Part shown: in pieces, positions 6,062 to 10,879 of the stretch
Position numbering within the stretch: position 1 is the first letter of the stretch
How the letters are laid out: the number at the start of each line of letters is the position of its first letter
Assembly (NCBI GenBank): GCA_048937405.1
Contig: JBHLNF010000007.1
Location: 64,001-128,000 of the forward strand
Source: Promethearchaeota archaeon
GTDB lineage: Archaea > Asgardarchaeota > Lokiarchaeia > Sigyniarchaeales > SOKP01
Length of the DNA stretch: 64,000 bases
Reading direction: 5' to 3'
Position numbers and translations under genes: made by a program
The notes under the pieces: generated by a model
Databases searched by the model: none
Told to the model about the DNA's origin: nothing
What the model saw: the letters and a program-made list of their open reading frames with translations, nothing else

Positions 6062-6769
6062 ATGAAAAAAGAGAATATTTTAAGAGATCATAATGAATCG
6101 ATAATATATTCTGAAAAAGATTGGAATCTCTTAAAGGACAAAAGAGCGAATGCAATAAAACTATTAAAAATATTCACTATAGAAGGCTTTAATCCATTTA
6201 TTTATGGAAGTATTGCACGTGGCAATGTTCATGAAAATAGTGATATTGATATTATATTTCTTGACCAAGTTCCCTCATTTCAAATTGAATTCATATTAAA
6301 TAAAAATGGTTATAAAAATTATTTTAGAGAAATTATAATGGCAACTCCCTTAGATTCAATAAAACTTTACATTTACTTAAGTGAATTAGAGAGTATAACA
6401 ATACCATTATCAAAATTAGATAAAAATATTTTAGAATTTTATGATTTTGGTGGAAAAATCAACTATAATCAACTTGATTCAGATTTAAGAGTAGCGGGTA
6501 TTGATAAAAGACTAGTTCTAATCAACCCTACACCTGAAGGACACGAAGAAATCTCAATTATTGGAAATGAAGTAAGAGCTGCAAAAGAGGTAGGGATTAG
6601 TATTGAGACTTTAAATGAACGCAAAAAAGTGTTTTTAAGAAGGGAAAAACATGGAAGAACTGGTGTATTTTTAAAAAGACAACTTCAAATTAATGAAACC
6701 ACTGAAGAAGCTTTAAAAAATTTAGCAAATAAGAAATCTATTGTGAGAAAAAAATTATTTAAAATATGA
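6062..6769 (+). CDS. Archaeal Pol-beta-type nucleotidyltransferase (COG2413-like)
   Basis: YGSIARGNVHENSDIDI, RVAGIDKRL, GRTGVF. Confidence 0.85.
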   Translation: MKKENILRDHNESIIYSEKDWNLLKDKRANAIKLLKIFTIEGFNPFIYGSIARGNVHENSDIDIIFLDQVPSFQIEFILNKNGYKNYFREIIMATPLDSIKLYIYLSELESITIPLSKLDKNILEFYDFGGKINYNQLDSDLRVAGIDKRLVLINPTPEGHEEISIIGNEVRAAKEVGISIETLNERKKVFLRREKHGRTGVFLKRQLQINETTEEALKNLANKKSIVRKKLFKI

Positions 6770-7917
6770 GAAAGAAAATTTTAACCAAATCAGAAGGAGA
6801 AACTTATTTTATAAAAGTTAGGAGCATACCAAAAGGGTGTAAGTATTGTCTAGAAGGAAGTAAGGTTGTGTTATTTCTAAATGGTATTTGTCAAAAACCT
6901 AATCATTGTTCATGGTATTGCCCTATTTCGGAAGAAAGGAGAAATAAAAATCAAACTTATGCAAATGAAATTGAGATTACATCTAAAGAAGAACTAATTA
7001 AAGAAATAAATATGATAGACGCTCATGGAATGAGTATTACTGGAGGAGAACCACTTTCAGAGCTAAATTTTGGAAAAACCCTTGATTATATTAAATACAC
7101 TAAAAATAAAAAAGGAAAAAAATTTCATATTCACCTGTATACTAATGGTATTAATTTTAGTGAAGAAAAAGCTGAAAAACTATCTAGAGCAGGTTTGGAT
7201 GAGATAAGATTTCATCCTTCTAAAGAAAACTGGATTAATATAGAGAATGCTCTCAATAAACATATGACAGTGGGAGTAGAAGTACCCGTTATCCCTGAAA
7301 ATGAGAAGATAAAAGAACTCAAACAACTAATCCTTTATTTAAATACAATTGGAGTAGATTTTATTAATTTAAATGAATTTGAGTATTGTTTTCCTAATAG
7401 TCAATCATTAAAGGAACGAGGTTTTCAATTGAAAAAAGGATCAATTGCTTCAGTTGTCAATAGTCATGAAACTGGACTTAATTTAATAAGAACCATCGGT
7501 CCTAAAGTATCTTTTATGATGCATTTTTGCACTATAAAAGCTAAAGACTATTTTCAATTAAAAAACAGATATATTAGGAGAGCTAAAAATATCAGGCTAC
7601 CTTATGAAGTAATTAATGAAGAAGGGCTTATAATTTATGGACAAATAGAGGGAAGCAAAAAGGAATTAGATGAATTTTACAAAATTCTCTTGAATAAGCT
7701 AAAAATTCAAGATGAATTGATATCTTATAATAGGGTTAATATTAAACTTCCCTTTTATATCTCAATTAGGGATGAATTTTTATCACTTCTGGAAAATTAT
7801 GACTTAAAAGGTTACATTGTAGAGATTACACCTTTTAGACTTTTAAAATATCAACAAATAACTGAAAAGACCCCTATTAAATTATTTAAGGAAGAATATG
7901 GTTTTAATGGAAGTTAA
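6766..7917 (+). CDS. Radical SAM protein (archaeal COG2108-like)
   Basis: GCKYC, C-x5-CWYC cluster motif, SITGGEP, GLDEIRFHP, NLNEFE. Confidence 0.85.
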   Translation: MRKKILTKSEGETYFIKVRSIPKGCKYCLEGSKVVLFLNGICQKPNHCSWYCPISEERRNKNQTYANEIEITSKEELIKEINMIDAHGMSITGGEPLSELNFGKTLDYIKYTKNKKGKKFHIHLYTNGINFSEEKAEKLSRAGLDEIRFHPSKENWINIENALNKHMTVGVEVPVIPENEKIKELKQLILYLNTIGVDFINLNEFEYCFPNSQSLKERGFQLKKGSIASVVNSHETGLNLIRTIGPKVSFMMHFCTIKAKDYFQLKNRYIRRAKNIRLPYEVINEEGLIIYGQIEGSKKELDEFYKILLNKLKIQDELISYNRVNIKLPFYISIRDEFLSLLENYDLKGYIVEITPFRLLKYQQITEKTPIKLFKEEYGFNGS

Positions 7918-8383
7918 AAAGGTTAATATCAAGGACTTAAACAAAATATTAAATCTCGAAAAGAGAATTTTTAAAGAGAATGCATTTTCCAAGAAATTAA
8001 TAGAGAAATTAATTTCAAATAATTTGGTTTTTTTAAAACTAGAAATTTCTAAAATAAATAAAAAATTAATCGGATTTATCATTGTTATAAAAGATCGAGA
8101 GGAGAGTGTTAGTATTATTAATTTTCTCATTGATCCCAAATATCAAAATAAGGGATATGGATCATATCTTCTACAGTATACAATAGAAAAGATAAAAAAT
8201 CTAAAGAACATTAAAAAAATAAGCTTAAATGTTCAATTGAGTAATTCCCCCGCTATTAATCTGTATGAAAAATTCAATTTCAAAAGAAATCCAACAATTT
8301 TAGAGAATTATTATCAATCCGGAGAAAGTGCTTATTTAATGGAACTTGAAATTAACTCTCGATTAACTAAAACTTATAAATAA
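7898..8383 (+). CDS. rimI: RimI/Ard1-like GNAT N-acetyltransferase
   Basis: YQNKGYGS acetyl-CoA motif, NSPAINLYEKFNF, NYYQSGESAYLM. Confidence 0.82.
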   Translation: MVLMEVKKVNIKDLNKILNLEKRIFKENAFSKKLIEKLISNNLVFLKLEISKINKKLIGFIIVIKDREESVSIINFLIDPKYQNKGYGSYLLQYTIEKIKNLKNIKKISLNVQLSNSPAINLYEKFNFKRNPTILENYYQSGESAYLMELEINSRLTKTYK

Positions 8384-8456
8384 ATTCTATTACAATATGT
8401 GTAAATATCAATTTAATTATTTTTAATGAATTTAAAATAGAAGGTGTTTATTAAAA

Positions 8457-8609
8457 TTGGCTCCAGTAGATAAAGAACTTCAAGAAGAAATTAAAAAAGG
8501 TGTAACTCTTCAAAAAGTTGATGAAGCAGAATTAAAGAGACGTGAAGAAGAAAAAAAGAAACGTATGGAAGAATTAGAAAAAGTAAAAGCAGCTCTAGGT
8601 GAAAAATAA
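8457..8609 (+). CDS. Uncalled 50-aa mini-protein with WH2-like motif and charged single helix
   Basis: TTG start with AGGTG SD about 10 nt upstream; MAPVDKELQEEIKKGVTLQKVDEAELKRREEEKKKRMEELEKVKAALGEK; T-rich tract downstream. Confidence 0.75.
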   Translation: MAPVDKELQEEIKKGVTLQKVDEAELKRREEEKKKRMEELEKVKAALGEK

Positions 8610-8743
8610 GAAAAATACTATCTTTAAATGAGTTAATTTTTATCTTTTTTATTTATTTTATTTTCGCAAATATTTTTACTAACGCAGATTAAATTAAGCT
8701 TTTCTTTAATTTTAGATTAGTTTTATTTAATGTATAAATTTTT

Positions 8744-9835
8744 TTGATAAAACATAAGGATTTGAAAATTCTAAATCTCGACCTAAAACTTGGAGAAGTT
8801 ACAGTACAAACTGAAAATCTCTACGATTTATGGTCTCTGTATAATGTTATTGATAAAAATGATGAAGTAAGTGCTTTAACTCAGAGAAGAGTAGTTCTTA
8901 GAGAAGGTACAAAAGGTGAACGAAAACGAATGAGATTAAAATTAAAAGTCGAGGATGTCTCCTTTCATGAATTTTCAAATCGATTGAGAATTAAGGGTAA
9001 AATTCTTGAAGGTCCAGAGGATTTTGTCAGCTTTGGATCATACCATACTTTTAATATCGAAATACCCCAAAAAGTAACAATTATTAAGGAAAATTGGTTA
9101 AATCATGAAATTAATCGACTAAAAGAGACCTCAAGATTCAAATCTAATTTCATAATTTTAGTATGTGCAATTGAAACAGGATTAGCAACATTAGCACTTA
9201 TTACGAATTTTAGTCATAATCGAATTGCTACTATCAAAAAAAACATCCCTGGTAAAAGATATAAACAGACATACCGCAATAAGGCTTTAGAGGAATTTTT
9301 TAATGAAATAAAGAAAGTTATGATTGAAAATATTAAAAATTCAGAAATTGATTTAATTATCTTATGTGGACCAGGTAATACTAAAGATTATTTCAAGAAA
9401 TATTTTCAAAATATTCCTGATTTGGACTTTAGGGGAACAATAGAAACTTGTCATGCAAGTTCTGGGACAGAGAGTGCTATTAGAGAAACTTTAAAATCAA
9501 ATAAGTTAGAAAAGCTAAAAGACAAAATTAAAGTTCTGCAAGAAACTGAGAAAATTGAAAATATTATGGAACAATTTGCAAAGGATGCCGATCTCATAGT
9601 TATTGGAATTGAAGAAGTGTCTGAAGCCTCTGAAAAGGGTGCAATTAAACAATTAATGATAGCAGACATATTAATTAGAGGTTCTTCTAAAAAAGAAAAA
9701 TTAAAAATAGAAGAGATTATAAAAAATGTTGAAAATGGTGGGGGCGAAATTAATATAATGAGTACTGATAATATAACTGGGGAGCAATTAGTAAATCTAG
9801 GTTCAATAATAGGTATTTTACGATATAAACTTTAA
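8744..9835 (+). CDS. pelA: mRNA surveillance protein pelota
   Basis: DLWSLYNVI, RLRIKGKI, GSYHTFNI, IPGKR, CGPG, GILRY. Confidence 0.95.
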   Translation: MIKHKDLKILNLDLKLGEVTVQTENLYDLWSLYNVIDKNDEVSALTQRRVVLREGTKGERKRMRLKLKVEDVSFHEFSNRLRIKGKILEGPEDFVSFGSYHTFNIEIPQKVTIIKENWLNHEINRLKETSRFKSNFIILVCAIETGLATLALITNFSHNRIATIKKNIPGKRYKQTYRNKALEEFFNEIKKVMIENIKNSEIDLIILCGPGNTKDYFKKYFQNIPDLDFRGTIETCHASSGTESAIRETLKSNKLEKLKDKIKVLQETEKIENIMEQFAKDADLIVIGIEEVSEASEKGAIKQLMIADILIRGSSKKEKLKIEEIIKNVENGGGEINIMSTDNITGEQLVNLGSIIGILRYKL

Positions 9836-9844
9836 TTTAAAAAA

Positions 9845-10879
9845 ATGACCTCTAAAATAATCTATGTGGATGAAAAATCAGAAATACCATTATTTGGAGT
9901 AGATTTCATTGGTGTAATTGATAGGGGTACTAATGTTATTGAAGTGAAACCATTAACTTTATGCAACTTAAATTGTAAGTATTGTTTTGTAAGTGCTGGA
10001 GATTATAATACTGATTTTATTGTAGATCCAAACTTCTTACTTAAGAAAATAAAAGATATTATTAATATAAAAGGAAACCACAATATTGAAATTCATTTTG
10101 CTCCATATGGGGAAATATTGCTATATTCAGGATTATATGATTTATTAAAAGAACTATGGAATATCGAAGGAGTAGAAGTTATCTCCTTACAGACTAATGG
10201 ATTATTACTTAATAAAGAACTAATAAAAAAATTAGAAAAATATAATGTTACAAGAATTAACATTAGCTTAAATTCGCTAAATCAAGAAAAAGCTAAGTTT
10301 TTAAGTAACTGTGAGACATATAACGTAGAGAATCTTTTGAAAAGCATCCTATTGTTATTAAAAACACAAATAGACGTATTAATTGCCCCTGTTTGGTTTC
10401 CAGGCGAAAATGATAGTGATATTGAAGATATTATTAAATTTGTTCTTAATCTAAGAAATAAAGGATTCTCTCAAAAGAAAATTCAAATTGGAATTCAAAA
10501 ATATTTGATTTATAAAACTGGACGTAAATTAAAAAAAATAAGACCAAAAAGTTGGGATTATTTCTACAAACAATTATCCATAATGGAGAAAAAGTTTGGA
10601 ATTAAGTTAAAATTGGGTCCACAAGATTTCGGGATCCATAAACGGAAAATAGGTGCCAGATTGAATATACAGAAAAATGATCGTATCAGATTAAAAATCA
10701 TCTCTATAGGTCGATATGATAGAGAATATATTGGAAAATTAAATGATAATTTTGGTATAAAAGTACTCTTAAATAAGCCAATTCAGCAACCTAAACAACT
10801 TATCGGTAATTATATTGAAACCAAAATTATTAAAGCCAACTATAAAGACAATATTCTAACAGCATCTTTTTCAATATAA
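9845..10879 (+). CDS. Radical SAM protein (archaeal COG2100-like)
   Basis: IPLFG..FIGVIDRGTNVIEVKP, CNLNCKYC, LQTNG. Confidence 0.85.
   Translation: MTSKIIYVDEKSEIPLFGVDFIGVIDRGTNVIEVKPLTLCNLNCKYCFVSAGDYNTDFIVDPNFLLKKIKDIINIKGNHNIEIHFAPYGEILLYSGLYDLLKELWNIEGVEVISLQTNGLLLNKELIKKLEKYNVTRINISLNSLNQEKAKFLSNCETYNVENLLKSILLLLKTQIDVLIAPVWFPGENDSDIEDIIKFVLNLRNKGFSQKKIQIGIQKYLIYKTGRKLKKIRPKSWDYFYKQLSIMEKKFGIKLKLGPQDFGIHKRKIGARLNIQKNDRIRLKIISIGRYDREYIGKLNDNFGIKVLLNKPIQQPKQLIGNYIETKIIKANYKDNILTASFSI

Follow-up and report, generated by a model that had tools for sequence, protein, structure and literature searches.

The window analysed here is a 64,000-nucleotide stretch from a Promethearchaeota archaeon of the class Lokiarchaeia (assembly GCA_048937405.1, contig JBHLNF010000007.1, positions 64,001 to 128,000 of the forward strand), in which positions are counted from the first letter. 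At 8457..8609 on the forward strand it carries an open-reading frame (ORF) of 50 codons, initiated by TTG and terminated by TAA, which is a real gene under strong constraint. Its product, which we refer to as the microprotein, is probably the independently transcribed, free-standing form of an Asgard-specific WH2/beta-thymosin-like module acting on Lokiactin, a module found in four families (f1 to f4) of a single Asgard order. The initial annotation, made from the letters of the window, had proposed a hidden WH2-like mini-protein that might bind actin monomers. Its WH2-like reading gains from a profile likeness that depends on the order of the residues, from fusion of the module to profilin and from the presence of a tandem paralog in a Lokiactin co-immunoprecipitation (co-IP), whilst neither Pfam model, WH2 or Thymosin, recognises the microprotein and the stand-alone form is not significantly enriched in that co-IP.

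At the G+C content of the window (27.4%) a K/E-rich ORF by itself means little, and conservation is the test. A word-indexed search returned 256 database homologs of 49–51 aa with 78–96% identity to the microprotein, the named ones being entered at NCBI as 'hypothetical protein' of Promethearchaeota or Lokiarchaeota metagenome-assembled genomes (MAGs). Across 22 orthologs the proportion of synonymous differences (pS) was 0.52 and that of nonsynonymous differences (pN) 0.048, a pN/pS of 0.09, with 18, 7 and 45 of the 50 columns variable at codon positions 1, 2 and 3. The gene order radical SAM, GNAT, mini-gene, Pelota was kept in 30 of 30 related loci, in which the mini-protein (76–96% identity) is more highly conserved than its neighbours (48–89%). 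The ORF could be imagined as a chance product of AT-rich intergenic DNA, as it has only 50 codons, begins with TTG and was missing from the first ORF track, but the number of homologs, the pN/pS with its excess of variable third positions (45/50 versus 7/50 at second positions) and the detection of ortholog peptides in the proteome of Lokiarchaeum ossiferum refute this and leave it practically no probability. The gene is thus both conserved and, in its ortholog, expressed.

The signals around the gene support independent expression. A TATA-like element (TTCTATTACAATAT, 8385..8398, forward strand) lies ~60–70 nt before the start codon as a putative promoter, and a 'ctattataat' box 5' of the gene is kept in 26 related loci. 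The Shine-Dalgarno-like GAAGGTG (8440..8446, forward strand) stands 10 nt 5' of the start codon and orthologous loci show AAGGTG or AAGGGG at a constant distance before the start, whose position is constant although the codon itself varies between ATG, GTG and TTG. Downstream, a T-rich tract (8637..8664, forward strand) is likely an archaeal transcription terminator; a T-tract is kept in the 26 related loci and 'ttttatcttttttatttattttatttt' follows the gene in nearly all orthologous loci. The TTG start, the Shine-Dalgarno sequence and the downstream T-rich tract pointed out by the initial annotation were all confirmed from the window sequence. Its description of the protein as hidden holds for the ORF track of this genome, from which it is absent, but not for public data, as the exact sequence is present in a public collection and orthologs are annotated in NCBI MAGs; very short, very conserved genes remain annotated as 'hypothetical' or are overlooked.

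An AlphaFold2 (AF2) model of the microprotein, built from 43 diverse sequences and with a mean predicted local distance difference test score (pLDDT) of 87.8, divides it into three parts, all encoded on the forward strand. An N-terminal amphipathic helix is predicted for residues 6–14 (KELQEEIKK, 8472..8498), followed by a loop of residues 15–22 (GVTLQKVD, 8499..8522), in which a Gly helix breaker precedes an extended L-x-K-V-D with an LKKV-like core, and by a long charged helix of residues 23–49 (EAELKRREEEKKKRMEELEKVKAALGE, 8523..8603) with near-invariant R29, K33, R36, E39 and L40. The modelled succession agrees with the helix, G, LxKV and charged helix that had been read from the sequence. 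Residues 8–22 are LQEEIKKGVTLQKVD, and V4, L8 and I12, spaced i, i+4, i+8, are expected to lie on one helix face. In the family alignment A1 residues P3, I12, G15, L18, K20, D22, R29, R36, E39, L40, K42, K44 and G48 are invariant, and R36 and E39 are also invariant in the more diverse set A3. Among 52 units taken from tandem and fusion proteins (described below) L18 is the most conserved residue of the module (98%), R36 and K/R33 are each kept in 96%, and position 21 is I or V in 71%; the next most constrained are I/V21, D22, I12, the hydrophobic pair before I12, and G15. In the tandem units this pair and the isoleucine read LL/LM-x-x-I. With K20 also conserved, the positions of the motif are clearly constrained, and many stand-alone relatives have LKKV verbatim where the window protein has L18-Q-K20-V21.

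Two structural marks of WH2 are present in the microprotein: a helix of about three turns with hydrophobic residues, closed by Gly or a small residue (the predicted helix 6–14 and G15), and an LKKV/LKKT-type motif at fixed spacing after that helix (L18 and K20, invariant in A1). The general plan of a beta-thymosin, a free-standing protein of ~40–55 aa with a helix, an LKKT-type segment and a second helix, is likewise matched by the modelled 50-aa protein. A third mark of WH2, profile similarity to bona fide WH2 domains, is detectable, with its significance coming from summed repeats: in a search of 177,635 PDB sequences the best A1 match was 3m3n_W, the tandem WH2 chain of N-WASP (E 5.6e-4), with 2vcp_D and the MIM WH2 chain 2d1k_C further down the list, whilst the top two for A3 were 3m3n_W (3.2e-4) and, after it, Spire 3mn7_S (0.004). 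The N-WASP sequence quoted in the initial annotation, LLDQIREGAQLKKVE, is found letter for letter in 3m3n_W. Against 1.84 billion protein representatives, A1 gave 52 matches passing E 1e-3, nearly all of them family members, and reached P0172 (E 7.7e-4), a Pfam-validated multi-WH2 protein (PF02205, 80.8 bits). Aligned by hhalign, A3 and the five WH2 units of P0172 gave 85% probability and E 6e-6 over 23 columns, and eight WH2-type units scored 11–19 bits against A3, where none of 500 shuffles of each attained the real score, both tests being partly circular, as P0172 was itself found with the family profile. A language-model search returned, after the microprotein's own cluster, two PF01290 Thymosin clusters (scores 0.86 and 0.85), which we treat as a lead only. 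The sequence comparisons thus support a WH2 resemblance that is specific to residue order and detectable by profile. P0172 itself is a protein of 439 aa on a 13 kb Logan contig, whose N-terminus is hydrophobic and which contains a UIM-like stretch; another protein, P0169 (169 aa, on a 774 bp ENA contig), contains three LKKT/DKS.P thymosin/WH2-like repeats which are not called by Pfam.

The weak PDB matches of A1 and A3 also include a de novo TIM barrel and aEF-1beta. The aEF-1beta of M. thermautotrophicus (1gh8_A) gave the best single-stretch PDB score (14.5–15.7 bits), which, together with the fixed synteny with Pelota, would fit a translation-related product, either derived from aEF-1beta, as a fragment or paralog, or accessory to ribosome rescue by the adjoining Pelota. 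Such a role is very improbable, as the microprotein gene is flanked by a promoter-like box and a terminator of its own and the module shows no fusion to translation domains. The relation to aEF-1beta was rejected outright, since L097, the aEF-1beta encoded in this genome, gave -1.2 bits with the family profile.

Compared with known systems, the module shares with WH2 domains (WASP/N-WASP, WAVE, WIP, MIM, Spire, Cordon-bleu and bacterial VopL/VopF) a short amphipathic helix with hydrophobics at i and i+4 (LL-x-x-I in tandem units), a Gly, an extended L-[KQ]-K-V and then an acidic residue. Its G-x-x-LxKV aligns column for column with the N-WASP, Spire, MIM and P0172 units, and like WH2 it occurs singly, in tandem arrays and beside profilin-related functions. 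It differs in being archaeal, in its unit of ~46 aa, in its charged helix (R29, K33, R36, E39, L40), in the second basic residue of LKKV, which is often Q, E, S or T, in the nearly invariant Asp after V, and in arrays of 9–11 units versus 2–4. With the beta-thymosins (thymosin beta-4, Ciboulot, tetrathymosin, actobindin) it shares the form of a free-standing acidic/basic peptide of 43–55 aa, the N-terminal helix, the LKKT/V-type segment, the second, C-terminal helix and the occurrence of tandem repeats. Stand-alone f3 orthologs read EIE-x-H-DKS-x-M-x-x-V and KLKKVSEEEK, and their thymosin-like N-termini are close to the thymosin beta-4 sequence (EIEKFDKSKLKKTET). At 27 residues, the C-terminal helix of the module exceeds that of the beta-thymosins in length and carries far more charge, and its pattern of conservation is a different one. 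By the sequence features tested the module would work like a WH2 domain or beta-thymosin, although it fails the curated models and has an extra conserved helix.

Within the literature searched, the WH2-like elements described in Asgard archaea are limited to the LKKT-type linker of their two-domain gelsolins. These linkers have the motifs LRRV, LKHV, LVDV and LKDV and contact actin in crystal structures (PMC9433394; bioRxiv 10.1101/2025.11.30.690169), so this actin surface is used by Asgard regulators. Unlike the linker, which consists of four residues joining two gelsolin domains and lacks an amphipathic helix before it, the module is autonomous and separately encoded. The Asgard profilins (5zza, 5yed/5yee, 5zzb, 7pbh) are small regulators of actin monomers, some paralogs of which carry one to four copies of the module immediately after the profilin domain; the two have no relation in sequence or fold.

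The module family is confined to one Asgard order, with weak look-alikes elsewhere, and is no general Asgard trait. In 399 genomes of the phylum searched with A1, the four families of this order gave matches in 123 of 133 (f1), 1 of 1 (f2), 12 of 14 (f3) and 4 of 4 genomes (f4), other families of the class in 0 of 7, and the remainder of the phylum a single weak match. The more diverse A3 agreed with this (142 of the 152 genomes of the order), with additional weak matches in f19 (9 of 19 genomes) and f31 (6). The f19 relatives (L092, L093, L095) are small ORFs with ELKREIKKGAKLEHV and a different C-terminus (...EKLRAEGKLEEED), those of f31 (L094, L096) are proteins of 267–304 aa with ELKASILSGVSLKKVDEE, and both share the WH2-like N-terminal half only, not the charged helix. 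Lokiactin was present in all 41 sampled genomes of the order (84–100% identity in 37, 51% or less in four), its best PDB match being HC1 actin, and the genome of the window has five actin-family genes.

Beyond the stand-alone forms (49–56 aa), the module of ~46 residues occurs in three larger settings. Tandem proteins of ~480–505 aa, consisting nearly throughout of 9–11 copies at a regular period of ~46 aa, are found in f3 (L038:2364-3827:-, L037:2312-3787:-, L043:1010-2494:+) and also as P0124 and P0160; L038:2364-3827:- is a 488-aa ten-repeat protein at ~4.7264–4.7278 Mb of G138:C1. In a second setting (L042:2001-2765:-, L039:1448-2290:+, P0144, P0163) a profilin domain is followed by 1–4 module copies and a C-terminal domain of ~55 aa with a conserved '...YIYDDFQLL.VK..IE...' and no Pfam match. 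Residues P0163:1-125 match the solved Asgard profilins 5zza_P (6e-9), 5yed/5yee, 5zzb and 7pbh in the PDB, and the Pfam Profilin scores of the fusion N-domains stay under the cut-off; judged by the PDB matches, the profilin identity of the N-domain is solid. In the third (L040:1889-2857:-, L044:1277-2344:+, L041:1155-2210:+, P0166) a Ras/Roc-type GTPase or leucine-rich repeat (LRR) domain is followed by a module variant ('AIPSH..G.YLKEID...') and a ribbon-helix-helix (RHH) domain (DUF6290/NikA-like), which is an unusual signalling architecture. Neither tandem nor profilin-fusion forms were found in the genome of the window, where the stand-alone gene is the only module copy and the profilin-domain proteins present all lack the module. 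One of these, outside the window on contig 7 of this genome (G000), is a 413-aa protein with an N-terminal profilin-like domain (L088:748-1986:-), directly downstream of a second actin gene (L088:2271-3443:-, an 85% identical paralog). Two further profilin-domain proteins, L089 and L090, share another C-terminal motif ('LK.EI..FL.W....GLAGYI').

A published Lokiactin antibody co-IP and proteomes of L. ossiferum B35 (bioRxiv 10.1101/2025.11.30.690169, Suppl. Table 2) place the tandem form beside actin in cells. We took G138 as L. ossiferum from the positions and tags of actin and the gelsolins and from the actin mass: the G138 actin at 3,924,747 corresponds to tag 03343, whose table mass of 42.75 kDa is the monoisotopic mass from Met5, and the 2-domain gelsolins at 4,784,000 and 3,040,124 correspond to tags 04136 (2DGel1) and 02589. 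Interpolation between the actin and 2DGel1 tags gives ~4083 for the ten-repeat protein at 4,726,534, the monoisotopic mass of which is 56.414 kDa. GNAMCCOK_04085 has a mass of 56.41 kDa, 44 peptides, 70.5% coverage and 366 spectra, and a Lokiactin/immunoglobulin G (IgG) log2 ratio of 4.53 with an adjusted p of 0.0021 (bioRxiv 10.1101/2025.11.30.690169). Because mass and gene-order tag agree, we equate it with the ten-repeat L038:2364-3827:-, a mapping which is new. With actin at log2 4.44, 2DGel1 at 3.97 and the profilin Pro2 at 1.07 in the same co-IP (bioRxiv 10.1101/2025.11.30.690169), the enrichment of GNAMCCOK_04085 with Lokiactin equals that of actin. In cells, at any rate in tandem form, the module family thus associates physically with Lokiactin, through a contact that may be indirect.

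For the stand-alone L. ossiferum ortholog the predicted tag is ~2443 and the mass, with an upstream GTG start, 8.239 kDa, which leads to GNAMCCOK_02436 (8.24 kDa). This protein has a value in 16 of 16 proteome columns (mean log2 18.4, compared with 17.4 for Pro2 and 21.7 for actin), and the ortholog of the microprotein is therefore made as a protein in L. ossiferum. The text of the preprint on the co-IP names only profilin, gelsolins, an Arf GTPase and BAR proteins (bioRxiv 10.1101/2025.11.30.690169). Several other strongly enriched proteins are undiscussed there, namely GNAMCCOK_04250 (20.6 kDa, log2 5.1), GNAMCCOK_00333, GNAMCCOK_02751 and the 4.41 kDa GNAMCCOK_03085 (log2 2.66, adjusted p 4.7e-4).

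A number of these results weigh against a WH2-like module acting on Lokiactin. The search with the WH2 model PF02205, by which the initial annotation had suggested checking its idea, gave no match to the microprotein or to f3 orthologs at E up to 10, nor did PF01290, so that by the curated models the microprotein belongs to neither family. A PF02205 scan of the whole genome also misses ORF 8457–8609, its sole match being an unrelated one on contig 13 (10.6 bits, against a gathering score of 23.1 bits). Single WH2 units score 5–9 bits against A1, the significant E-values in the PDB and the large library being sums over tandem repeats, and the hhalign and shuffle tests share the circularity noted above. 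R36 and K33, which are among the most strongly conserved residues, belong to a charged helix for which canonical WH2 has no counterpart, and the genomic neighbours of the microprotein (GNAT, Pelota, radical SAM) have no actin connection. In the co-IP the stand-alone GNAMCCOK_02436 was not significantly enriched (log2 0.57, adjusted p 0.105, 5 peptides), the GNAMCCOK tags were mapped to ORFs by mass and position rather than by accession, and the material was cross-linked with formaldehyde, by which association may be indirect (bioRxiv 10.1101/2025.11.30.690169). Finally, the fusions to Ras-like GTPase, LRR and RHH domains would also fit a general adaptor.

That alternative holds the module to be a general protein-protein adaptor or a charged single-helix spacer with no direct actin role, for example a docking element for small-GTPase/LRR signalling proteins or another abundant partner. 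On this view, indirect association or electrostatics would account for the co-IP signal of the tandem protein, and the resemblance to WH2 would have arisen by chance from a short K/E/L-rich motif at 27% genomic G+C. The fusions to Ras/Roc GTPase with RHH and to LRR with RHH, the silence of the curated WH2 and Thymosin models, the stand-alone ortholog that is not significantly enriched, the 27.4% G+C and the TIM barrel and aEF-1beta among the weak PDB matches all fit it. However, shuffle controls show that the match is specific to residue order, WH2-actin constructs take the first two places among the 177,635 PDB sequences, the Asgard profilins to which the module is fused are a proven actin-binder family, and the tandem paralog, with its 44 peptides, is enriched like actin itself. 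On balance we consider an adaptor unlikely.

The module may also bind actin in another way than WH2, with its charged helix (REEEKKKRMEELEKVK) lying along the side of the Lokiactin filament, one unit per subunit, as a ruler or stabiliser of the nebulin type. In that case the WH2 likeness of the N-terminus would be secondary or due to convergence, and the 50-aa form would decorate filaments and be no monomer binder. The regular ~46 aa period of the tandem proteins is in keeping with such an arrangement, R36 and K/R33 of the charged helix are among the most invariant residues, and enrichment of the tandem form but not of the single unit with Lokiactin fits avidity on filaments. The most conserved single residue, however, is L18 of the LxKV, the look-alikes in other Asgard lineages keep only the WH2-like half, and the top profile matches are WH2 motifs rather than filament side-binders, and this arrangement thus seems decidedly unlikely.

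For the preferred WH2/beta-thymosin-like module, what is known of WH2 and of thymosin beta-4 leads us to infer that the 50-aa protein would bind actin directly, and also suggests a binding site and an effect on polymerisation. Helix 6–14 would occupy the barbed-face cleft of Lokiactin, between subdomains 1 and 3, and end at Gly15, and the extended L18-x-K20-V21-D22 would climb the actin surface like the LKKV of WH2, with L18 in the pocket which that motif uses. The charged helix 23–49 may make a second contact toward the pointed face, as does the C-terminal helix of thymosin beta-4, or may serve as a spacer. A single unit would then bind monomeric Lokiactin 1:1, so as to buffer the monomers or to deliver them, whilst the 9–11 tandem units of relatives could align several actins, as a nucleator or filament-associated factor.

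No free-standing WH2/thymosin-like protein, profilin-WH2 fusion or tandem array in Asgard archaea was found in the literature searched, where the actin regulators described are profilins and gelsolins only, with no nucleator and no monomer binder of the thymosin/WH2 type. Neither formins nor a complete Arp2/3 system are known from the organisms that bear the module. It is possible, though less likely than not, that the module and the eukaryotic WH2/beta-thymosin motif are truly related by descent, or that the module is the archaeal precursor of that motif, with the 50-aa protein as a thymosin-like sequesterer or shuttle and the 9–11-repeat paralog as the missing nucleator. WH2-type control of actin monomers would in that case have arisen in Asgard archaea before eukaryotes. 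Stand-alone, profilin-fused and ten-fold tandem WH2/beta-thymosin-like proteins would form a third class of Asgard actin regulator and would date one of the most widespread eukaryotic actin-binding motifs to before eukaryogenesis. The idea is directly testable, as a 50-residue peptide can be synthesised, assays with Lokiactin and rabbit actin exist, and in a cultured organism, L. ossiferum, the tandem paralog already ranks with the most enriched proteins of the Lokiactin co-IP, a point undiscussed in the preprint text.

Across positions 6062–10879 of the window the genes are, in order, a nucleotidyltransferase, a radical-SAM protein, a GNAT acetyltransferase, the microprotein, Pelota and a second radical-SAM protein, and none of the neighbours is linked to actin; an overlap of 20 nt (7898–7917) is shared by the radical-SAM and GNAT ORFs. 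A contig with a 78%-identical microprotein gene (L106, DATKTW010000134.1) is filed under a 'Candidatus Nanopelagicaceae bacterium' MAG and is probably a mis-binned Asgard contig.

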